Positions 4,415 through 63,032 of a stretch of 64,000 nt of DNA are shown in pieces (the first letter of the stretch is position 1; every line of letters begins with the position of its first letter). Below the pieces are notes generated by a model. That model was not told where the DNA came from and ran no database searches. It saw only the letters and a list, made by a program, of their open reading frames with translations. Position numbers and translations under genes: made by a program. The DNA is from Clostridiales bacterium (GTDB lineage: Bacteria > Bacillota > Clostridia > Oscillospirales > Acutalibacteraceae), in contig JAAYPE010000037.1 in NCBI GenBank assembly GCA_012519975.1, forward strand, positions 5,129 through 69,128, read 5' to 3'.

Positions 4415-6208
4415 TTAACCTATTAATCCATATTTTTCAAGTGTTTTAGCAATTTTTTCACCTTTTGGTAACATTAAAACATCATTTTTCGATATTGCAC
4501 TGACTAAAAACAGGGAAACAAAGTAGATAAACACTGCAATTATCGACGCTAAAACTAATGCCAGAGTTGACCCATTGAGCCTTGTTGCATAATCGCCAAA
4601 ATTAAAAGCCCTATCAAGCAAACCGTATGATGACCAAGCTGAAAGCCCTGACAAAACAGAGCAAAATAGCGGTTTTAGAAGAATCGCTCTAATATGAAGG
4701 CGAATTTTTGCCTCCCTGACTAAGAAAAAAAGATTGCTTGAAACGATAATAACATAACACAAAACAGTGCCAATTGTAGCACCATAAATGTTGTATTTAG
4801 GATTTCCGACAAAAATATAGTTTGAAATTATCTTTACAGTCGCACCAACCATCAGAGATTTTAAGGGAATATCTGCTCTGCCTATAGCTTGCAGCATATT
4901 TGTTATTGGTGTTGATAATGCAAAAACACACGATGCCAAACCATAAATTATAACTACATTTGAAGTTATTTCTATTGCACTTTCGGCTCTAGTTCCGATA
5001 TACATAAAGGTGAGCATAGGTTTTGCAAGTGCCGCCATACAAAAACCTGTTGGCAAGGCAAGTAGAAGTGACGCTCTTAAAACAGAGTCAACTGTACGGT
5101 AAATCTTTCTTTTATCTTTAACAGCCCAAGCAGACGACAACGCAGGTATTGAGCTAACCCCAAGCGTCATTGTTATAGTTGGTAGCAGATTTTTAAAATC
5201 TAGTGCTGTTGTATAAGCACCATATAAATAGCCTTTAATATCTTCATCAATTGTATGCGAACTAGCAAGTGGGTTTGCATACATATGCTTAATAAAATCG
5301 AGGTTATTTGCTACAGTAAAATCAAGTCTTTTTTGTATTGTAGACACATCTATTAAATTTGTTATGTTAAGAACTAGTGAGCTTGCAACAACCGGGATTG
5401 CAAGACTTATAAGCATTTTTGCTAAATCGTTGCTTGGAATAGGTCTTGGAGAATTAATTAATTGTTCTCTTGTAATTCCATCACCCAGAACCCTGTGCCT
5501 AATTGCAACATATAAAAATGCAAGTATTGTACCTACTGTAACGCCACCGATTGCTGCTGCTGCAGTGTAAGGATAAATTGCACTTAGTGCCTCATCGTGA
5601 TTTGTTACTACAACACCAAAAACAGGGCCACCAGCAAGATATTGTTTCTCCCCATAGCCCATTGCCATTCTAGCAAATATAAGACCAAAAATCAGCTTGC
5701 CTACGGTTTCAATAACTTGCGAAATCGCAGTAGGCATCATATTTCTCATACCCTCATAATATCCCCTGTAAGTTGACATTAAACAGCAAAAGAAAACAGA
5801 AGGAGCAAGTGCTAAAATACTTGGTATCGCATTTGGGTTATTTATATATTTCGTGTACGGAGTAACTAAGATAAAAAGAACTATTGTGCCTAATGTTCCA
5901 GTAATGAGAAATATTTTTTTTACAACTTTAAAGATAACACGAACTTCCCTATATCTACCTGTTGCCATTCTCTCAGACACCATTCTAGACACAGCAACGG
6001 GAAGCCCCGCCATAGAGATTGCATATATAGGTGTGTATAATTCATACGCAGTGTTAAAGTATCCCCTGCCGACAGTCCCAAAATAGGCTGTCAGCGGGAT
6101 TTTATAAAATATTCCAACTATATGAACAATAATCGTAGCAACTAAAAGCACCATTGCCCCACCGAACAACGATTGCCCTTTATTGCGGGGTTTTACCAAT
6201 ATTAACAC
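4415..6208 (-). CDS. MOP-superfamily flippase (SpoVB/YabM/MurJ-like polysaccharide biosynthesis protein)
   Basis: 597 aa, roughly 14 TM helices, in the position of yabM/spoVB next to mazG. GTG start is uncertain. Confidence 0.75.
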   Translation of the reverse strand: MLILVKPRNKGQSLFGGAMVLLVATIIVHIVGIFYKIPLTAYFGTVGRGYFNTAYELYTPIYAISMAGLPVAVSRMVSERMATGRYREVRVIFKVVKKIFLITGTLGTIVLFILVTPYTKYINNPNAIPSILALAPSVFFCCLMSTYRGYYEGMRNMMPTAISQVIETVGKLIFGLIFARMAMGYGEKQYLAGGPVFGVVVTNHDEALSAIYPYTAAAAIGGVTVGTILAFLYVAIRHRVLGDGITREQLINSPRPIPSNDLAKMLISLAIPVVASSLVLNITNLIDVSTIQKRLDFTVANNLDFIKHMYANPLASSHTIDEDIKGYLYGAYTTALDFKNLLPTITMTLGVSSIPALSSAWAVKDKRKIYRTVDSVLRASLLLALPTGFCMAALAKPMLTFMYIGTRAESAIEITSNVVIIYGLASCVFALSTPITNMLQAIGRADIPLKSLMVGATVKIISNYIFVGNPKYNIYGATIGTVLCYVIIVSSNLFFLVREAKIRLHIRAILLKPLFCSVLSGLSAWSSYGLLDRAFNFGDYATRLNGSTLALVLASIIAVFIYFVSLFLVSAISKNDVLMLPKGEKIAKTLEKYGLIG

Positions 6209-50817: not shown

Positions 50818-52209
50818 TTATTTCGACAAATCTCTTCCTTTAAGCACTCCCATAGCAGATGCCATCATAAGCCCTCTAGTCCAACCACTAGAGTCACCAA
50901 GACAACTAAGACCTTCTACGCTTGTGTTAAAATTCGCATCCATTTTTACGCGATTGCTATAAAATTTTAATTCTGGTGAATACAAAAGTGTTTCAATTGA
51001 AGCGAACCCTGGCACAACATTGTCTACAGCCTCTATAAAATTGATTATGTTTATCATCGCTCTATAGGGCATTGCCGCTGTTATATCTCCTGCTATGGCA
51101 TCGGGTAGCGTTGGTTTTATATTTGACCTTACAAGCTCTTTTTGCCAAGTTCTTTTACCGTCCAAAATATCTCCAAAGCGTTGAACAAGTATGTGCCCCG
51201 AGCCTAGCATATTAGTTAGCTCTCCAATTTTTTGCGCATATTCAATAGGTTGGTTAAAAGGCTCATTAAAGTTATGAGAACATAGTATTGCCAGATTTGT
51301 GTTATCCGATTTTTTCCCTTTATACGAATGGCCATTAACAACGGCTAAATCGTTATCATAATTTTCTTGACTTACAAATCCACCTGGGTTTTGGCAAAAT
51401 GTTCTAACTTTATTTTTAAAAGGTTTTGGATAACCAATAAGCTTTGATTCGTAAAGAACATTGTTTACTTTTTCCATAACTTCGTTTCTAACCTCTACAC
51501 GAACACCTATATCAACTGTTCCCGGCTCGTGGGCTATATTATGCTCTTGGCAAATTTTTTCAAACCAATCCGCACCTCTTCGACCTGTTGCTATGACTGT
51601 ATGCCTTGCCAATATTTCTAATGTTTCTTTATTATTTTTTATATTAACACCAAGGCATTTTTTATCCTTTAATATAATACTAGTGCATTCATATCCAAAT
51701 AAAATTTCTACACCGTTTTCAATCAAATACTGCTCAATTGCATAATAAATATCTTGAGCTTTCTCTGTTCCTAAGTGTCTTATTGGGCAATCAACAAGCT
51801 TTAAGCCTGCCTGTATCGCACGCTTTCTTATCTCTTTTACTTCCTCATCATTATGTATTCCTTCTATATGCTCGTCAGCACCAAAATCAAGATAGATTTG
51901 GTCAGTATAGTTAATCATTTCCTGAGCTAACTCTTCACCTATTAGCTGTGGCAAATCTCCTCCAACCTCGTGGCTTAAAGATAACTTTCCATCAGAAAAT
52001 GCTCCCGCACCTGAAAATCCAGTTGTTATATGACAATACGGTTTGCAATTAACGCAATATTTTGTTTTGCTTTTTGGACAACTTCTTTTTTCAATAGACT
52101 GCCCTTTTTCAACAATCAAAATATTTTTATTACTACCGTTTCTAATCATTTCGAGTGCCGTAAAAATACCCGCAGGTCCTGCCCCTACTATTACTACATC
52201 TTTATTCAT
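50818..52209 (-). CDS. uncharacterised FAD-dependent dehydrogenase (COG2509-like NAD(FAD)-utilising oxidoreductase)
   Basis: VVIVGAGPAGIF dinucleotide fold. 463 aa. No substrate-specific motif recognised. Confidence 0.8.
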   Translation of the reverse strand: MNKDVVIVGAGPAGIFTALEMIRNGSNKNILIVEKGQSIEKRSCPKSKTKYCVNCKPYCHITTGFSGAGAFSDGKLSLSHEVGGDLPQLIGEELAQEMINYTDQIYLDFGADEHIEGIHNDEEVKEIRKRAIQAGLKLVDCPIRHLGTEKAQDIYYAIEQYLIENGVEILFGYECTSIILKDKKCLGVNIKNNKETLEILARHTVIATGRRGADWFEKICQEHNIAHEPGTVDIGVRVEVRNEVMEKVNNVLYESKLIGYPKPFKNKVRTFCQNPGGFVSQENYDNDLAVVNGHSYKGKKSDNTNLAILCSHNFNEPFNQPIEYAQKIGELTNMLGSGHILVQRFGDILDGKRTWQKELVRSNIKPTLPDAIAGDITAAMPYRAMINIINFIEAVDNVVPGFASIETLLYSPELKFYSNRVKMDANFNTSVEGLSCLGDSSGWTRGLMMASAMGVLKGRDLSK

Positions 52210-55591: not shown

Positions 55592-56491
55592 TTATTCAGT
55601 TACAATATCATCATTTTCAACCAATGCTTTGAAAGATGTTGCAAGACCAGCAAAACCTTGAATTTCAGATGGAATAATAATTTTTGTAGCCTTTCCATCT
55701 GCCACTTTTGCAAATGCCTCAAGTGCCTTTAATCTAATAACATCATCATTAGGTGCAGCTTTATTCAAAAACTCAATCGAATCGGCCAACGCTTTTTGAA
55801 CAGTTGTCAATGCCTCTGCCTCACCTTGCGCCTCTTTTATCTGTGACAAACGCTTTGCGTCTGCTCTAAGAACCATTGCCTCTTTTTCTCCTTGAGCTAC
55901 TAAAATTGAGGATTGCTTTTTACCTTCAGCAACTAGAATCGATTCTCTTCTCTCTCGCTCAGCTTTCATTTGCTTTTCCATTGATTCTTGAATTTCTCGT
56001 GGTGGTATAATATTTTTAAGCTCAACCCTATTAACCTTAATTCCCCACGGGTCTGTCGCTTCATCTAATATTGTACGCATTTTGGTGTTAATAATATCCC
56101 TCGATGTAAGAGTTTGGTCTAGCTCTAAATCTCCTATAATGTTACGCAAAGTTGTTGCTGTTAAGTTCTCAATCGCAGACATAGGATTTTCGATTCCGTA
56201 TGTATACAGCTTAGCGTCTGTGATTTGAAAATAAATAACCGTATCAATTTGCATTGTAACATTATCTGCAGTGATAACTGGCTGTGGCGGAAAATCTGCT
56301 ACCTGCTCTTTTAATGAAACTTTTTTTGCAATCTTTTCAAAAAGAGGTATTTTAACATGTAAACCTGTTTCCCATGTTACTTTATACGCACCTAAACGCT
56401 CAATTGTATAAGCTTTTGCTTGTGGAACAATAACAATGTTCGTACCGATAAAAAATACAGCTAAAATAATTAGAAAAATTAACCAATGCAT
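55592..56491 (-). CDS. SPFH/band-7 (stomatin-like) membrane protein
   Basis: N-terminal TM helix, PHB domain, Ala/Glu-rich coiled coil. Paired with nfeD. Confidence 0.9.
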   Translation of the reverse strand: MHWLIFLIILAVFFIGTNIVIVPQAKAYTIERLGAYKVTWETGLHVKIPLFEKIAKKVSLKEQVADFPPQPVITADNVTMQIDTVIYFQITDAKLYTYGIENPMSAIENLTATTLRNIIGDLELDQTLTSRDIINTKMRTILDEATDPWGIKVNRVELKNIIPPREIQESMEKQMKAERERRESILVAEGKKQSSILVAQGEKEAMVLRADAKRLSQIKEAQGEAEALTTVQKALADSIEFLNKAAPNDDVIRLKALEAFAKVADGKATKIIIPSEIQGFAGLATSFKALVENDDIVTE

Positions 56492-56517
56492 AATAAGACA
56501 CTCTCCCTACAAAAATA

Positions 56518-57003
56518 TTATTTATTACAAACTTGCACATCATTGCACAATTGTACAATCGCTTTTACCCCAGAAATAGAGCGAACAATAACCTCGCTCC
56601 CCTCCTCGATAATTTGGTTATCTAAACTTCTCGCAGACCAAAATTGCCCCATAAGTTTTACTTGACCTGTTTCCTTTGAATTGTCAATTGTTTCAATTAC
56701 AATTGCTTTTTGGTCAATTATTCTATCCGCATTTGTACTTTGCTTTTTAACTTTTAAAACATTTTTTGTAAAGGGGCGAAGAACTACCAAAAGCAAAACA
56801 GAACTAAGAGCAAAAACTGCCCATTGAAGAGCAACAGAGCCACCTAAAGCACAAACAATAAGTGCAAACAAAGCTCCGGTTGCAAACCAAATTGTTGTTA
56901 AAGATACTGTTGTTGCCTCTAAAAAAATCATTGCAACTAGAACAATTATCCAAAAATAAATACCCGTAGAATTAATTAATTCAATCACAAATAACCCCTC
57001 CAA
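56518..57003 (-). CDS. NfeD family membrane protein
   Basis: Three or four TM helices plus a C-terminal OB-fold. Directly upstream of the SPFH gene. Confidence 0.85.
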   Translation of the reverse strand: MEGLFVIELINSTGIYFWIIVLVAMIFLEATTVSLTTIWFATGALFALIVCALGGSVALQWAVFALSSVLLLVVLRPFTKNVLKVKKQSTNADRIIDQKAIVIETIDNSKETGQVKLMGQFWSARSLDNQIIEEGSEVIVRSISGVKAIVQLCNDVQVCNK

Positions 57004-57142: not shown

Positions 57143-58573
57143 ATGCAAAGCATTTTAGAAAAACTAAAAAGATATCAGAAATTAAACTTTACACCTATGC
57201 ATATGCCGGGACATAAAAGAAATATAGATTGCGGTGACTATCTAGGCGAACTTTGCGCCAGTTTAGACATTACCGAAATTGATGGTTTTGACAATTTACA
57301 CAAACCGCAAGGAATTTTAGCAGAGTCGATGAAAAAAGCATCTGAGCTGTGGGAAAGCCACGAGTCCTTCTTTTTAGTGGGTGGCAGCACTTGTGGAATT
57401 CTTGCATCTATTCGCAGTGCCGTTTGTAATGGTGACGAAATTATTGTTGCTCGAAATTGCCACAAATCTGTTTATAATGCAATAGAACTTCTGGAGCTAA
57501 ACGCCCATTTTGTGCTACCAACAATTGATGAGGATTTTGGAATTTATGGTAGTATTGCTCCCGAACAAATAAATTTTGCTTTGAAAAAATTTCCAAATTC
57601 AAAACTTGTTATTTTAACTAGCCCAACATATGAAGGTATAATTAGTGACATAAAAGGCATTTGTAAAATTGCCCACAATTATGGTATTCCTGTTCTTGTT
57701 GACGAGGCACACGGCGCACACCTTAGCTTTTATAATTTTCCAAAAGGTGCTATAAAATCAGGTGCTGATATTGTTGTCCAAAGCTTGCACAAAACATTGC
57801 CAAGCCTTACACAAACTGCAATTGCACATTTAAATAGTGATTTGATATCTTGTGATAGTTTAGCAAATGAGCTTTCAATTTTTCAAACAAGTAGCCCATC
57901 GTATTTATTACTAGCCTCAATTGATGGTTGTGTAAATCTAATAAAAAAGCAAGGTGAAATTTTATTTAATCAATGGGAAATGGCTCTTAATCTTTTTTGT
58001 GAAACTGCAAAAGAACTAAAAAATTTATCTGTTTTAGGATACGGTTTTGATAATATTAAAAACCATAAATGTATATTTGATTTTGACAATAGCAAGATTG
58101 TAATTTCAACAATAAACACTAATTTATCAGGAACAAGTGTTGCAAAAATGCTTAGAGAAAATTATAAAATTGAAGTTGAAATGGCATCAGCTCAATATTT
58201 AATTGCAATGACAGGACTTGGCGACAAACCTGAAAATATTTTAAAGCTTGCAAGCGCAGTTTTAGAAATAGATAAAAGGTGTGAGCACAAAAAAGTAAAA
58301 GGCCCATCCCCTATTATTTCAACTTTACCAAAAATAAATTATAAGGCTAGCAAAGCCTTGAAATTGCCAAACCAAAACATCAGCATAGACAAAGCTTGCA
58401 ATAAAACATCGGCAGAATATGTGTGGGCTTATCCCCCAGGAATTCCAATTATAGTGCCTGGTGAAAAAATAAATCAAGAAATTATCAACGATTTGCAAAC
58501 CTTGAAAAATTGCGGTGTTGATATTTTTAAAACTAATGGATATGATGTAAATTCAATAAAAATTTTGCTATAA
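57143..58573 (+). CDS. Orn/Lys/Arg decarboxylase family PLP-dependent enzyme
   Basis: MPGHK start region and SLHKTLPSLTQ (PLP lysine). Confidence 0.85.
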   Translation: MQSILEKLKRYQKLNFTPMHMPGHKRNIDCGDYLGELCASLDITEIDGFDNLHKPQGILAESMKKASELWESHESFFLVGGSTCGILASIRSAVCNGDEIIVARNCHKSVYNAIELLELNAHFVLPTIDEDFGIYGSIAPEQINFALKKFPNSKLVILTSPTYEGIISDIKGICKIAHNYGIPVLVDEAHGAHLSFYNFPKGAIKSGADIVVQSLHKTLPSLTQTAIAHLNSDLISCDSLANELSIFQTSSPSYLLLASIDGCVNLIKKQGEILFNQWEMALNLFCETAKELKNLSVLGYGFDNIKNHKCIFDFDNSKIVISTINTNLSGTSVAKMLRENYKIEVEMASAQYLIAMTGLGDKPENILKLASAVLEIDKRCEHKKVKGPSPIISTLPKINYKASKALKLPNQNISIDKACNKTSAEYVWAYPPGIPIIVPGEKINQEIINDLQTLKNCGVDIFKTNGYDVNSIKILL

Positions 58574-58598: not shown

Positions 58599-58627
58599 TT
58601 TACAATATACATATTTTGTTGTATAGT
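58599..58627 (+). promoter_or_regulatory. candidate sigma-A promoter of the SCIFF operon
   Basis: TTTACA, 17-nt spacer, TATAGT, about 40 nt upstream of the peptide ATG. Confidence 0.45.
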
Positions 58628-58668
58628 ATTACTCATTAATAATACATTTATAAAAGGAGATTTTTATA

Positions 58669-58824
58669 ATGAAAAGAATAAATACTCTTAACACTCGCGA
58701 CCTTGCTAAAAGCGTGAAAAATGGTGGCTGTGGCGAATGTCAAACTTCTTGCCAATCTGCTTGTAAAACTTCTTGCGGTGTTGCTAACCAACCTTGCGAA
58801 AACAAAAACAGCAAAGAACAGTAA
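58669..58824 (+). CDS. six-cysteine peptide SCIFF (ranthipeptide-class RiPP precursor), 51 aa
   Basis: Below the ORF-track size cut-off. AAGGAG RBS 8 nt upstream. MKRINTLNTRDLAKSVKNGGCGECQTSCQSACKTSCGVANQPCENKNSKEQ carries the conserved GGCGECQTSCQSACKTSC core. Confidence 0.9.
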   Translation: MKRINTLNTRDLAKSVKNGGCGECQTSCQSACKTSCGVANQPCENKNSKEQ

Positions 58825-58903
58825 TTATTAGTCAAAAATTTGCCGCCTGTTTCACAAAAGTGTGAGCGAGCGGCAATTTCATTGCAGAAAAGGACGATTG
58901 TTT

Positions 58904-60286
58904 ATGATTCACCAGTATAAAATGAATGGGTATAACATTGTTGTTGATACTTTTAGTGGTTCCATTCATTCAGTTGATGATGTTGCTTATGATATTATAG
59001 GTCTTTATGGAAATACAAAAAAAGAAGATATTGTATCTCATATTTTAGATAAATACAAAAACAACGCATCTATTAATAGAGAAGAAATTTTAGAATGTAT
59101 TGAAGATATTGAATTTTTAAAAGATAATGGCAAATTATATTCTGAAGATATTTATTCAAATAAAGCTTTCGACCTTAAAAATCGAAACACAGATATAAAG
59201 GCGTTATGCCTCCATGTTGCTCATACTTGCAACTTAAATTGTGAGTATTGTTTTGCAAGACAAGGCAATTATAATGGTGAAAATTCCTTGATGAGTTTTG
59301 AAGTTGGAAAACAAGCTTTAGATTTTTTAATTGCAAATTCTGGTAATCGCGTTAACCTAGAAGTAGACTTTTTTGGCGGAGAACCACTGATGAACTGGGA
59401 AGTTGTAAAACAGCTAGTTGGATATGCTCGAAGCCAAGAAAAAAAATACAATAAAAAGTTTCGTTTTACGCTTACAACAAACGGAATGTTAATAAATGAT
59501 GATGTTATAGATTTTTCGAATAAAGAAATGTATAATGTTGTTTTAAGTCTTGACGGACGAAAAGAAATTCACGATAAACTTAGAAAAAATCTTGCTGGCG
59601 ACGGCAGTTATGATATTATTGTTCCTAAATTTAAAGAGTTTGTTGAAAAAAGAAATGGCAAAAACTATTATATGCGTGGAACTTTTACTCACAATAATGT
59701 TGAATTTACAAAAGATATTTTTCATATGGCCGATTTAGGGTTTTATGAGCTTAGTATGGAACCTGTTGTTTGCTCTCCGTCTGACCCATACGCTTTGACC
59801 AAGGAAGATTTGCCGATTTTGTTCGAGCAATATGAACTCCTTGCAAAAGAAATGATTAAACGAAAAAACAAGGAAAATGATTTTACCTTTTATCACTACA
59901 CCATAGATTTAAATAACGGTCCTTGCATATACAAAAGGATTTCGGGTTGTGGCTCTGGCACTGAATATTTGGCTGTTACACCGCAAGGCGAGCTTTTTCC
60001 TTGTCATCAATTCGTTGACTCACCTAAATACAATATGGGTAATGTTTGGGACGGTGTCACTAAAACTAATATTAGGGACGAATTCAAACTATGCAATGTT
60101 TATTCTAGGTCTGAGTGTGACGACTGTTGGGCAAAACTTTATTGCTCTGGTGGCTGTGCTGCGAATGCCTATCATTCAACTGGAAATATATCGGGAACAT
60201 ATGAATATGGATGTGAGCTGTTTCGCAAGCGTATAGAGTGCGCAATTATGATTAAAGTAGCCGAGTTGGAAGATGATAAAAACTAA
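58904..60286 (+). CDS. SCIFF radical SAM maturase (SPASM-domain thioether-forming enzyme)
   Basis: CNLNCEYC radical SAM cluster and C-terminal SPASM cysteines (CGSG..C..., CDDCWAKLYCSGGCAA). ATG at 58904 is preferred to the GTG at 58862. Confidence 0.9.
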   Translation: MIHQYKMNGYNIVVDTFSGSIHSVDDVAYDIIGLYGNTKKEDIVSHILDKYKNNASINREEILECIEDIEFLKDNGKLYSEDIYSNKAFDLKNRNTDIKALCLHVAHTCNLNCEYCFARQGNYNGENSLMSFEVGKQALDFLIANSGNRVNLEVDFFGGEPLMNWEVVKQLVGYARSQEKKYNKKFRFTLTTNGMLINDDVIDFSNKEMYNVVLSLDGRKEIHDKLRKNLAGDGSYDIIVPKFKEFVEKRNGKNYYMRGTFTHNNVEFTKDIFHMADLGFYELSMEPVVCSPSDPYALTKEDLPILFEQYELLAKEMIKRKNKENDFTFYHYTIDLNNGPCIYKRISGCGSGTEYLAVTPQGELFPCHQFVDSPKYNMGNVWDGVTKTNIRDEFKLCNVYSRSECDDCWAKLYCSGGCAANAYHSTGNISGTYEYGCELFRKRIECAIMIKVAELEDDKN

Positions 60287-60290
60287 ACAT

Positions 60291-60327
60291 AAAAACTCGA
60301 GTATTATATAATGCTCGAGTTTTTTTA
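60291..60327. terminator. bidirectional intrinsic terminator between the maturase gene and larC
   Basis: AAAAACTCGAG pairs with CTCGAGTTTTT, with flanking A and T runs. Confidence 0.85.
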
Positions 60328-60331
60328 TCGA

Positions 60332-61474
60332 CTAATAATTTTTATAAATATCCAAAATACTGCAATTGTTTTTTTGTGCAATCTCTTTTGCCGATTCATA
60401 TTCTATACAGGTTTTTTCAATATCGTTCCAATAAAATATATTTGCATCCACTTTGCCGTATTTTGTATCAATTTTTGTGCTTTCCCTTTTCATTATAACA
60501 CGCTCCAAACTTTGCCTGCGAACTCCAACGGCAGTAGTTTGCTTGAATATTACCCCTATAACTTCACTTTCAATATTTGGATTGCACATAACAGATAGTT
60601 GCCACGCGGGACGATTTTTTTTCATATAAACAGGAGAAAAAAAAGCGTCGCTAACTCCGATTTCAAAAAGCTTTTCAAGGCAAAAAGCAAGCTGTTCTGG
60701 TGTACTATCATCAATGGCGGTTTGAATAAAAATTATGTTGTCTTTATCTTCTTGAACATCTTCAAAAATAAATGCTCGCAAAATATTTGGATGGGAAAAC
60801 TCTTTTTTCCCTGCTCCAATTCCAGTTTTTTGAATTACAATATTCTTTGGGTTTTCAAATTTATCTGCAATTGCACCAACAATAGCAGCACCCGTCGGTG
60901 TAATCATTTCGCTATTATTTTCTGTGATTTTTATAGGGATTTTTTTCGCTTTTGCAATTTCAACCACTGCTGGAACAGGAATTGGAATTTTTCCGTGAGC
61001 GCAGTTTACAAAGCCAAATCCATCACTTATTGGCGAGCAAATAACCCTGCTTATTTTTAAATTATCAAGACAAAAAGCCACAGCACAAATATCAACAATA
61101 GAATCTAGAGCCCCGACCTCGTGAAAGTGAACCTCTTCACGACTTTTTTTATGCACTATCGCCTCTGCATCTGCAACAACATCAAATATTTTTTTTGCTA
61201 TATTTTTTGCATTATCTGTTAAGGTTGACTTGTTTATAATTTCATAAATATCATTAATGCCTCTGCAACATTCATCCTTTTTTATAGTCTTAACATCAAA
61301 AAAACAGGAGGAAATGCCGTTCTTTTCAGATTTTCCTATATATAATTCGCAACCGAGGTTCATTAAATCTATAACACTTGCAAGCTCTTTTTGATTTGCC
61401 CCTAAATCAAGAAGTGCCGCAACAGTCATATCTCCACTTATTCCTGAAAGACATTCGAGGTATAATGTTTTCAC
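60332..61474 (-). CDS. larC: nickel-pincer cofactor biosynthesis protein LarC (nickel insertion, CTP-dependent)
   Basis: LYLECLSGISGDM N-terminus (DUF111). Single uninterrupted 380-aa ORF. Confidence 0.85.
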   Translation of the reverse strand: MKTLYLECLSGISGDMTVAALLDLGANQKELASVIDLMNLGCELYIGKSEKNGISSCFFDVKTIKKDECCRGINDIYEIINKSTLTDNAKNIAKKIFDVVADAEAIVHKKSREEVHFHEVGALDSIVDICAVAFCLDNLKISRVICSPISDGFGFVNCAHGKIPIPVPAVVEIAKAKKIPIKITENNSEMITPTGAAIVGAIADKFENPKNIVIQKTGIGAGKKEFSHPNILRAFIFEDVQEDKDNIIFIQTAIDDSTPEQLAFCLEKLFEIGVSDAFFSPVYMKKNRPAWQLSVMCNPNIESEVIGVIFKQTTAVGVRRQSLERVIMKRESTKIDTKYGKVDANIFYWNDIEKTCIEYESAKEIAQKNNCSILDIYKNY

Positions 61475-62217
61475 TAAATTTGACCCCCTAATGAATTTAT
61501 TTGAGCTGCTATATATCCTGCACCAAATCCATTATCAATGTTTACAACGCTAATGCCTGCTGAACAAGAATTTAGCATTGCAAGCAAAGCTGAAACCCCA
61601 CCAAAATTTGCTCCATATCCAATACTTGTTGGCACAGCTATTACAGGAACTCTAACAAGTCCTGCAACTACGCTTGCAAGGGCACCCTCCATCCCCGCAC
61701 AAGCAATAATTGCGTTTGCGTCTTGCAATTCATCAAGTCTGCTCATCAATCTATGAAGTCCCGCTACCCCAACATCATACATCTTTGTTACATTTGAGCC
61801 ACACATCTGTGCAGTGATAGCAGCCTCTTGAGCAACCGGAATGTCTGTTGTACCACCTGTGCAAATTGCAATTTTTCCGCTTGTCTTTTCTGGCGAGCCT
61901 ACTGTTATGCACTTTGATATTTCGCAATATTTTGCATCAGGCAACACTTTTAAAACACTGTCAAAATGCTCCTTTGAGGCTCTTGTGCCTAAAACTAAGC
62001 CATTCATATCATACAATCTTTCAAAAATATTAGCCGTTTGTTCTGGCACCTTACCTTGACAAAACACAACCTCTGGAAAGCCTGTCCTTATTTTTCTGTG
62101 ATGGTCAAGACAAGCATACTCCATATTTTCAAACGGTAACTTTTTGAGTTTTTCATAAGCTGTTTGCGTATCTAAATCACCATTTGCAACTTCTTCTAAA
62201 AGAGTCTTTACATCCAT
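61474..62217 (-). CDS. larB: nickel-pincer cofactor biosynthesis protein LarB (NaAD carboxylase/hydrolase)
   Basis: GFPEVVFCQGK motif and a PurE-like C-terminal domain. Confidence 0.85.
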   Translation of the reverse strand: MDVKTLLEEVANGDLDTQTAYEKLKKLPFENMEYACLDHHRKIRTGFPEVVFCQGKVPEQTANIFERLYDMNGLVLGTRASKEHFDSVLKVLPDAKYCEISKCITVGSPEKTSGKIAICTGGTTDIPVAQEAAITAQMCGSNVTKMYDVGVAGLHRLMSRLDELQDANAIIACAGMEGALASVVAGLVRVPVIAVPTSIGYGANFGGVSALLAMLNSCSAGISVVNIDNGFGAGYIAAQINSLGGQI

Positions 62218-62219
62218 TG

Positions 62220-63032
62220 CTATTCCTCTTTTCTTAAATTTAAATCCATACTTCCAGTTTTTAGACCTTCTAAATCTAAAGTTATATACAAAAACCCGAG
62301 GTGTTTAAGCTTGTTTATAATTTCGTCTTTATATTTAAAAAAGTTTTCAAATTCCGATTTTGGTATTTCTATTCTTGCTATTTCAAAGTGAACACGCAAC
62401 CTACAGTCTTCAAAGCCATATGATTTGAGTATATTTTCTCCATCCTGTGTCTTTAAAATTAAATTATTTGTAATCCTTGTGTTATATGGAAATCTAGTAA
62501 GAATACACGGTGATGACGGTTTTGTTGCAACACTAAGCGATAGCTCTTTTGCAATATTTCTCACATCATTTTTAGATAAGTTGCACTGCGCAAGTGGGCT
62601 ATGTATTTTGTTTTCAGATTTAGCTCTAAGCCCTGGCCTATACTCTTTTAAATCATCAAAATTAGTACCATCGCAGACTGCTAAAAAATCATTTTTATAT
62701 GCCGTTTCTTTAATTTTAGAAAACATTTTGTCTTTACAATAATAGCAACGAAGCTCACTGTTGCTTGAAATCCTCTCATCATTTAACATATTAATATCAA
62801 TCGTTTTATAAACCGCATTCATAGATTCTGCTATTATTTTTGCTTTTTCAATATCTGATTTGTTCGCGGTGAGCTGTGTATTCACAGTTATTGCCAAAAC
62901 ATCAAGCCCTGCAATTGTTGCAACTTTTAACAACACGGTTGAATCAACACCGTTTGAAAAGGCAATGCAAAGCTTATTGTCTATTGCTATTTTTTTAAGT
63001 TCTGTTATCAGCTTTTTCAGATTATCGCTCAT
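62220..63032 (-). CDS. larE: ATP-dependent sacrificial sulfur transferase LarE
   Basis: PP-loop AFSNGVDST, EYRPGLRAKSE, the cysteine-containing PSSPCILTRFPY, and RLRVHFEIARIEIP. Confidence 0.9.
   Translation of the reverse strand: MSDNLKKLITELKKIAIDNKLCIAFSNGVDSTVLLKVATIAGLDVLAITVNTQLTANKSDIEKAKIIAESMNAVYKTIDINMLNDERISSNSELRCYYCKDKMFSKIKETAYKNDFLAVCDGTNFDDLKEYRPGLRAKSENKIHSPLAQCNLSKNDVRNIAKELSLSVATKPSSPCILTRFPYNTRITNNLILKTQDGENILKSYGFEDCRLRVHFEIARIEIPKSEFENFFKYKDEIINKLKHLGFLYITLDLEGLKTGSMDLNLRKEE

Follow-up and report, generated by a model that had tools for sequence, protein, structure and literature searches.

A 51-codon gene with six cysteine codons, directly ahead of a gene for a radical S-adenosylmethionine (radical-SAM) enzyme, raises the questions of what peptide the pair makes, how it is expressed and what the product does for the cell. 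The pair lies at positions 58669 to 60286 of a 64,000-nt stretch of a Clostridiales contig (JAAYPE010000037.1), the whole of which we call the window, and a first-pass annotation made from the sequence alone had read it as a precursor, of the SCIFF type, of a peptide that is made on ribosomes and modified after translation (RiPP), with its maturase. Our answer, to which we give a probability of about 85%, is that the locus is a canonical SCIFF (scfA/scfB) ranthipeptide system of an uncultured low-GC Clostridia bacterium from an anaerobic digester or gut, with a proposed promoter-hairpin mode of expression, a thioether predicted to be installed by ScfB and a probable regulatory or signalling role. 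The window has a G+C content of 34%, and no second SCIFF-like open reading frame (ORF) was found in it.

The precursor gene scfA (58669..58824, plus strand) agrees base for base with the first reading, including its six cysteines and the ribosome-binding site AAGGAG (58655-58660, plus strand, read directly) that stands 8 nt before the ATG. Its 51-aa translation is MKRINTLNTRDLAKSVKNGGCGECQTSCQSACKTSCGVANQPCENKNSKEQ, with Cys at 21, 24, 28, 32, 36 and 43, and the leader takes up roughly residues 1-20, the core spans C21-C43, and ENKNSKEQ forms a polar tail. Searches with hidden Markov models (HMMs), which had been suggested as a check, identify both genes as SCIFF components. Specifically, TIGR03973 recognises the peptide with 86.4 bits (cut-off 50; E = 8.5e-25), residues 2-44 covering positions 1-43 of the 43 in the model, and Pfam PF13165 does so with 84.9 bits (cut-off 27; E = 3.4e-24). 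The cysteine spacing C-x2-C-x3-C-x3-C-x3-C-x6-C is that expected for SCIFF and is identical in CteA of Acetivibrio thermocellus and in 147 of 150 family representatives, a sample made up of those most similar to the query. The family is described as having peptides of about 45 aa, and the length of 51 aa falls inside the 45-53 aa spread of relatives. We also compared the pair with 80 genome loci that carry ScfB relatives at 69-95% identity and with three CteB-type loci (L087-L089); the nearest genomes are Clostridia metagenome-assembled genomes (MAGs) or isolates labelled Eubacteriales, Acutalibacteraceae, Ca. Fimenecus, Ruminococcus or Oscillospiraceae. In the 95%-identical relative, L007, scfA differs at four nucleotides, all of them third-position and synonymous. 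These synonymous-only changes, together with the E-values of both models, indicate that the ORF is not a chance one, and as judged from this comparison the peptide is under purifying selection. The earlier description of the gene as unlisted holds only for the length cut-off of the ORF track, since public gene calls show a 51-aa gene labelled PF13165 beside an identical scfB in each of the six public-assembly loci displayed. The identical ScfB enzyme is indexed in 44 blocks of a public assembly collection, including biogas-fermenter metagenomes, in which the same contig is found.

The 8-residue tail had been put forward as a feature that sets this copy apart, a suggestion that the tail-length distributions of relatives overturn. 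Tails after Cys43 are mostly 5-7 residues long in the 120 nearest peptides, where 8 to 10 residues also occur; they have a mode of 6 and a range of 2-8 in the 80 loci, with tails of 8 residues in no fewer than three further species (L041, L059, L077), and a mode of 5 among the 50%-identity representatives. The composition is of the E-N/K-K-x type throughout. The tail of the window peptide is thus rather long but still within the usual 2-10 residues, and is no distinguishing feature. Other forms of the precursor were seen among the relatives. Many (L014, L019, L021, L024-L026, L029, L031-L033, L039, L042 and others) carry a seventh Cys in the tail (ENCESK, EKCLSEK, EKCMSEK), which the window peptide does not. 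Two complete SCIFF modules in tandem, each with its leader and six-Cys core, are encoded by single ORFs of 87-92 aa (L010-L013, L018 and L053, just 5' of position 6001; proteins P0001 and P0241) from MAGs labelled Lachnospiraceae or Clostridia. Finally, in L048 (5718-5943) scfA appears to be frameshifted, with leader and core in different frames beside an intact scfB, which may be an assembly error or a pseudogene.

The maturase gene scfB (58904..60286, plus strand) codes for a 460-aa radical-SAM/SPASM protein that was assigned by its TIGR03974 score, by alignment to CteB and by conservation of its cysteines. As the first-pass annotation had it, scfB is the next gene downstream. Its ATG at 58904 follows the scfA stop codon after a 79-nt spacer; SCIFF loci have been recognised by a radical-SAM maturase gene within 500 bp of the precursor (PMC5300114). 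The product scores 752.3 bits against TIGR03974 (cut-off 425) and 62.5 bits against the SPASM model TIGR04085 (cut-off 27), while the Pfam SPASM model gives 19.9, slightly under its threshold of 21.5. It stays below threshold in three further models: the 'not_ScfB' exception model, which covers ScfB-like orphans (NF040492; 557.7 bits against 855), the QhpD model TIGR03906, its third-best match at 280.8 bits, and the PapB-type model NF047865 (274 bits). The radical-SAM motif, CNLNCEYC, is C109-x3-C113-x2-C116. Across 84 aligned ScfB sequences, CteB among them, Cys102, 109, 113, 116, 341, 349, 367, 405, 408, 414, 418, 437 and 446 are invariant, and the nine of these in the C-terminal part, where a ScfB-type SPASM domain is expected to hold the ligands of two auxiliary [4Fe-4S] clusters, are aligned to CteB, so the radical-SAM cluster and the C-terminal SPASM cysteine set that had been reported both stand. 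CteB (PDB 5WGG/5WHY) is also the best solved relative, with an E-value of 7.7e-168 and 54% identity over residues 1-455. In the sequence alignment residues 1-100 of ScfB run unbroken along the N-terminal domain of CteB, which is a RiPP recognition element (RRE) in the crystal structure (PMC8326336). A GTG start at 58862, which would give the longest ORF (474 aa), was rejected: it lies inside the intergenic hairpin described below, whereas the gene calls of public assemblies have the 460-aa protein, whose alignment with CteB begins at residue 1.

Promoter, hairpin and terminator

A sigma-A/sigma-70-type promoter-like element, TTTACA-17 nt-TATAGT with 10/12 matches, is found at 58599..58627 on the plus strand, and its -10 hexamer ends 42 nt ahead of the scfA ATG. 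Such a site is a recurrent feature of the family. When 78 distinct loci were scored, 75 had a promoter-like site ending about 22-84 nt 5' of scfA, with about 90% of these within 25-67 nt, and most of them had a perfect TTGACA and a 17-nt spacer. A GGAG-type ribosome-binding site within the last 20 nt before scfA was seen in 71 of the same 78. Furthermore, the 95-nt spacer 5' of scfA is identical to that of L007 at 94 of 95 positions, as compared with 92.6% identity for scfB.

Between the two genes lies a plus-strand stem-loop (58840-58876) that is followed by UUUCAUU, giving a terminator-like or attenuator-like element at 58840..58883. It was recognised by folding, with a free energy of -18.8 kcal/mol and a z-score of -4.1, and none of 200 shuffled sequences was as stable. 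All 80 distinct scfA-scfB spacers compared (L001-L089), that of CteA-CteB (L087) included, show the same arrangement of a hairpin with a T-rich tract directly behind it, as opposed to 25% of shuffled controls. Note that this count comes from a terminator-anchored test; an earlier scoring, which looked behind an over-long best hairpin, had given 22/77. The stem sequences are unrelated between clades and cannot be aligned between them, which is why RNAalifold returned no consensus from 35 scfA-scfB spacers. An Rfam search of the scfA-scfB cassette returned no known RNA, and a full-text literature search that was not aimed at this feature contained no mention of the hairpin.

A second structure, at 60291..60331, is a bidirectional intrinsic terminator that scfB shares with the convergent larC gene. 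It is built as A5-stem-T7, and the stem contains CTCGAG. On the plus strand it folds with -17.4 kcal/mol and a z-score of -6.8, and on the minus strand with -14.6 kcal/mol and a z-score of -3.95, followed by UUUUUAUGUUU. A pattern scanner missed both this terminator and the intergenic hairpin, and both are shown by folding. The first-pass annotation had credited the cassette with a promoter-like element and a terminator of its own, which these results bear out. It had also treated the pair as a bicistronic unit, a picture that the terminator-like hairpin between the genes makes incomplete in its simple form.

We propose that the conserved sigma-A-type promoter would drive scfA and that the hairpin 3' of scfA would act as a leaky terminator or attenuator. 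Probably no more than a fraction of the transcripts would continue past it into scfB, leaving the precursor mRNA in excess over the enzyme mRNA. An excess of precursor mRNA produced by a leaky terminator is familiar from lantibiotic operons. The order of promoter, hairpin and enzyme gene across 80 loci predicts that this excess should be large.

Cross-link chemistry and the acceptor residue

From the homology of ScfB to CteB and Tte1186 we infer that it makes a thioether. The enzyme would grip the conserved leader (MKRINTLNTRDL...) by its N-terminal RRE-like domain, and SAM would be cleaved at the C109/C113/C116 [4Fe-4S] cluster to give a 5'-deoxyadenosyl radical. This radical would then take a side-chain hydrogen from the peptide, and the thiolate of a Cys bound at an auxiliary SPASM cluster would be joined to that carbon. 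The earlier statement that SCIFF maturases install Cys-derived thioether cross-links is right as to the ranthipeptide class; it needs correction as to number and position, for the characterised precursors Tte1186a and CteA receive one thioether each (PMC8326336, PMC8172795), and an acceptor reported for that link is replaced in this peptide.

Specifically, the cross-link was mapped in vitro to Cys32-Thr37, and CteA made together with CteB in E. coli carried a Cys32-Thr34 thioether at the Thr C-gamma (PMC8326336, PMC8172795). The core of the window peptide, C21-C43, equals that of CteA at 22 of 23 positions, and the sole difference is Gly37 where CteA has Thr37. A Cys32-Thr37 link is therefore impossible here. 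The stretch C32-K33-T34-S35-C36 is present, and K-T-S between Cys32 and Cys36 is invariant in all 147 representatives that fit the Cys pattern, whereas residue 37 is Gly in 144 of them, as in the window peptide, and Thr in three, as in CteA and its relatives. This pattern favours Thr34 as the conserved acceptor, and the most likely product, by analogy with CteA, would be a peptide with one Cys32-S-C-gamma-Thr34 thioether. An invariant Thr34 with Gly37 in a very large clade thus bears on the disagreement over the acceptor.

Role of the peptide and its gene neighbourhood

We consider a housekeeping peptide with a regulatory or signalling function the most likely product, rather than a competitive bacteriocin, given that no dedicated protease or exporter is encoded nearby and that the core hardly varies between orders of Clostridia. 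The Pfam content of all called genes within about 8 kb on either side includes no protease, exporter or immunity gene beside the pair, as the first-pass annotation had noted. The intracellular or signalling role that it drew from this agrees with published opinion and is in that sense not new: the ubiquity of SCIFF in Clostridia has been used as an argument against an antimicrobial role (PMC8326336), and a 2026 preprint finds that no other biosynthetic clusters are as conserved across clostridial orders as those for SCIFF, with no more than one per species. The accompanying remark that the role of mature SCIFF is not established is partly right. There is one report, in which Chen et al. 2020, as their work is reviewed (PMC8326336, PMC8102284), claim a quorum-sensing-type regulation by the SCIFF system; as summarised in PMC8102284, a C. 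beijerinckii SCIFF mutant is described as having reduced sporulation-gene expression and increased agr.

Several points weigh against this reading of the locus. Promoter-like matches are common in AT-rich DNA (12 were found as against 9.5 expected from shuffles), so the element would be unconvincing alone, although the comparative data across 78 loci lend it support. The U-tract past the intergenic hairpin of the window is weak (UUUCAUU), and the hairpin could therefore stabilise or process the mRNA instead of terminating it. The acceptor data conflict, with Thr37 in vitro and Thr34 in E. coli (PMC8326336, PMC8172795), and the number and position of cross-links in this organism are carried over from its relatives by analogy. 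Finally, the physiological role goes back, as the reviewing sources present it, to a single study in solventogenic clostridia (PMC8326336, PMC8102284).

A different view of the locus would make the SCIFF pair part of a three-gene unit with an adjacent gene in Oscillospirales-type Clostridia, either for tailoring of the peptide or for co-regulation with polyamine or amino-acid decarboxylation. In the window that gene (57143..58573, plus strand) lies upstream of the pair and codes for a 476-aa protein of the pyridoxal phosphate (PLP)-dependent Orn/Lys/Arg-decarboxylase family (OKR_DC_1, AAT-fold; PF01276/PF03711), for which the best PDB match is 2X3L (E 7.9e-56) and no specific NCBIfam equivalog was found. 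Folding gave no terminator between it and scfA (z +0.3). A homologue stands on the same strand next to the SCIFF pair in 67 of the 80 loci and is the only conserved neighbour in the clade, whereas the other window neighbours (LarC, LarB, NfeD) are shared only with the near-identical L007. In 36 loci the homologue lies 5' of scfA, mostly directly adjacent, with 39-49% identity to the window protein (88% in L007); in L010, L013, L018, L041 and L077 the upstream homologue is separated from scfB by 2-4.5 kb. The other 31 loci have a more divergent form (28-31% identity), which follows scfB at operon-like spacing, from a 3-nt overlap to 45 nt. A targeted full-text literature search found no paper joining SCIFF with decarboxylase, secDF or yajC terms. 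However, this synteny is not family-wide, as the CteB-type loci of Acetivibrio, Ruminiclostridium and Pseudoclostridium lack the adjacency and have a queA-tgt-yajC-DUF3792 / secDF context instead, and several related genomes with adequate flanks also lack a decarboxylase homologue. The downstream arrangement forms a single clade on the ScfB tree, so few evolutionary events are needed to explain it, and the tree rules out many independent origins of the adjacency. In addition, scfA has a conserved promoter of its own. Another point against the unit is that, to our knowledge, free basic amino acids are the substrates of all OKR_DC_1 enzymes with a known activity. We regard the three-gene unit as unlikely, with the decarboxylase gene as a candidate member only. 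We likewise judge unlikely a broader proposition, that in the Oscillospirales-type lineage of the window scfA-scfB is one half of a conserved unit with the decarboxylase-family enzyme and that, separately, the Gly37/Thr34 pattern makes Thr34 the family-wide acceptor. If true, the unit would connect SCIFF with the metabolism of polyamines or basic amino acids, or with PLP-dependent tailoring, and the residue pattern would settle the Thr37-versus-Thr34 discrepancy for Thr34. The lineage-specific partnership is an inexpensive lead, open to test, on what SCIFF does in the cell, which is still poorly understood.

It is improbable, in our judgement, that the mature peptide works inside the cell as a redox, metal-binding (Fe-S-like) or cofactor-type molecule instead of as a signal. 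Such a role would account for the five invariant Cys, out of six, that stay free after the single cross-link seen so far in the characterised cases (PMC8326336, PMC8172795), and it would fit the lack of export genes nearby, a strong and constitutive-looking promoter, universal presence in an anaerobic class and the relation of ScfB to QhpD (280.8 bits against TIGR03906), which matures a protein-bound cofactor environment. Against it, the sole genetic study, as summarised in PMC8102284, points to regulatory effects. A PDB search with the scfA peptide returned no CteA chain and only a ferredoxin-like stretch of QueG at a non-significant E-value of 0.39. A classical secreted bacteriocin, one that would rely on general machinery or on distant genes for protease, exporter and immunity functions, is very improbable: although sactipeptides, which are related radical-SAM thioether peptides, are antimicrobial (PMC8326336) and the SCIFF pair adjoins yajC and secDF in other Clostridia, the surrounding 8 kb or so on each side contain no gene for a transporter, a protease or immunity, the core is near-invariant from Acetivibrio to this organism at no more than one copy per species, which is the opposite of bacteriocin diversification, the leader reads as hydrophilic and without a double-glycine site or a Sec-type signal, and the review literature argues likewise (PMC8326336).

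The remaining neighbours of the SCIFF pair can be described briefly. On one side, beyond the decarboxylase-family gene, are genes for a short NfeD and a Band7 protein, an Fe-ADH and a low-molecular-weight phosphatase, and on the other side larC-larB-larE, a phosphomutase, a Met-gamma-lyase-family gene and an acetyltransferase. The NfeD (161 aa, short form) and SPFH/Band7 pair (55592-57003, minus strand) is divergent from the decarboxylase gene, and since this NfeD has no protease domain it is no candidate for a leader peptidase. An M14 peptidase 8 kb away bears cell-wall-binding domains. The larC-larB-larE genes for nickel-pincer cofactor biosynthesis (60332-63032, minus strand) converge on scfB and all score above their NCBIfam cut-offs; no LarA-type gene adjoins the cluster, the next gene being the phosphomutase. 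Further away, a purine riboswitch aptamer (RF00167; 52270-52365, minus strand; 49.5 bits, cut-off 37) lies 5' of an ORF at 50818-52209 on the minus strand, which public calls place in the Pyr_redox_2/FAD-dependent oxidoreductase families and not in purine transport or salvage.

Comparison with characterised systems

The closest characterised system is CteA/CteB of Acetivibrio (Clostridium) thermocellus, which makes thermocellin. The enzymes are 54% identical over their full length, with all cluster-binding Cys aligned, and the precursor, read from locus L087 as MKHIKILNGSTLKDSLKKGGCGECQTSCQSACKTSCTVANQSCEKR, has the same Cys spacing and the 22/23 identical core described above. That locus likewise has a terminator-like hairpin between the two genes. 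Thr34 is kept in both peptides, whereas Thr37 of CteA is Gly37 in the window peptide; the leader reads TRDLAKSV in the window and GSTLKDSL in CteA, and the tails have eight and three residues, respectively. The flanks also differ. The window has the decarboxylase-family gene upstream and a convergent larC downstream, whereas Acetivibrio has rluD-type/yajC genes upstream and HD-secDF downstream. Specifically, Acetivibrio, Ruminiclostridium and Pseudoclostridium (L087 4710-9498, L088, L089) share a queA-tgt-yajC-DUF3792-scfA-scfB-(HD or hexapeptide protein)-secD-secF block that contains Sec accessory genes.

The Tte1186a/Tte1186 pair of Caldanaerobacter subterraneus belongs to the same TIGR03973/TIGR03974 families as the window pair. 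Its product has a single Cys-Thr thioether, and the enzyme has three [4Fe-4S] clusters, with a substrate Cys binding auxiliary cluster 1 (PMC10177961). The acceptor reported for Tte1186a, Thr37, is absent from the window peptide when the two are compared by the published description. The clostridia studied by Chen et al. 2020 have, as that work is reviewed, the same two-gene system and are the only ones with genetic data, and they belong to a different order (Clostridiales sensu stricto) from the organism of the window.

More distant are PapA/PapB, which yields freyrasin, and QhpD, whose enzymes are radical-SAM/SPASM thioether synthases homologous to ScfB. PapB makes six Cys-Asp C-beta links in CX3D repeats and QhpD makes its links in a protein subunit, whereas the window peptide has no CX3D motifs. 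SCIFF and ScfB were defined in 2011, and the window pair itself is already known, with curated HMMs, a crystal structure for the family and identical sequence in public assemblies. What the comparison adds to these known parts is the promoter-hairpin architecture, the Thr34/Gly37 pattern and the lineage-specific partnership with the decarboxylase-family gene.

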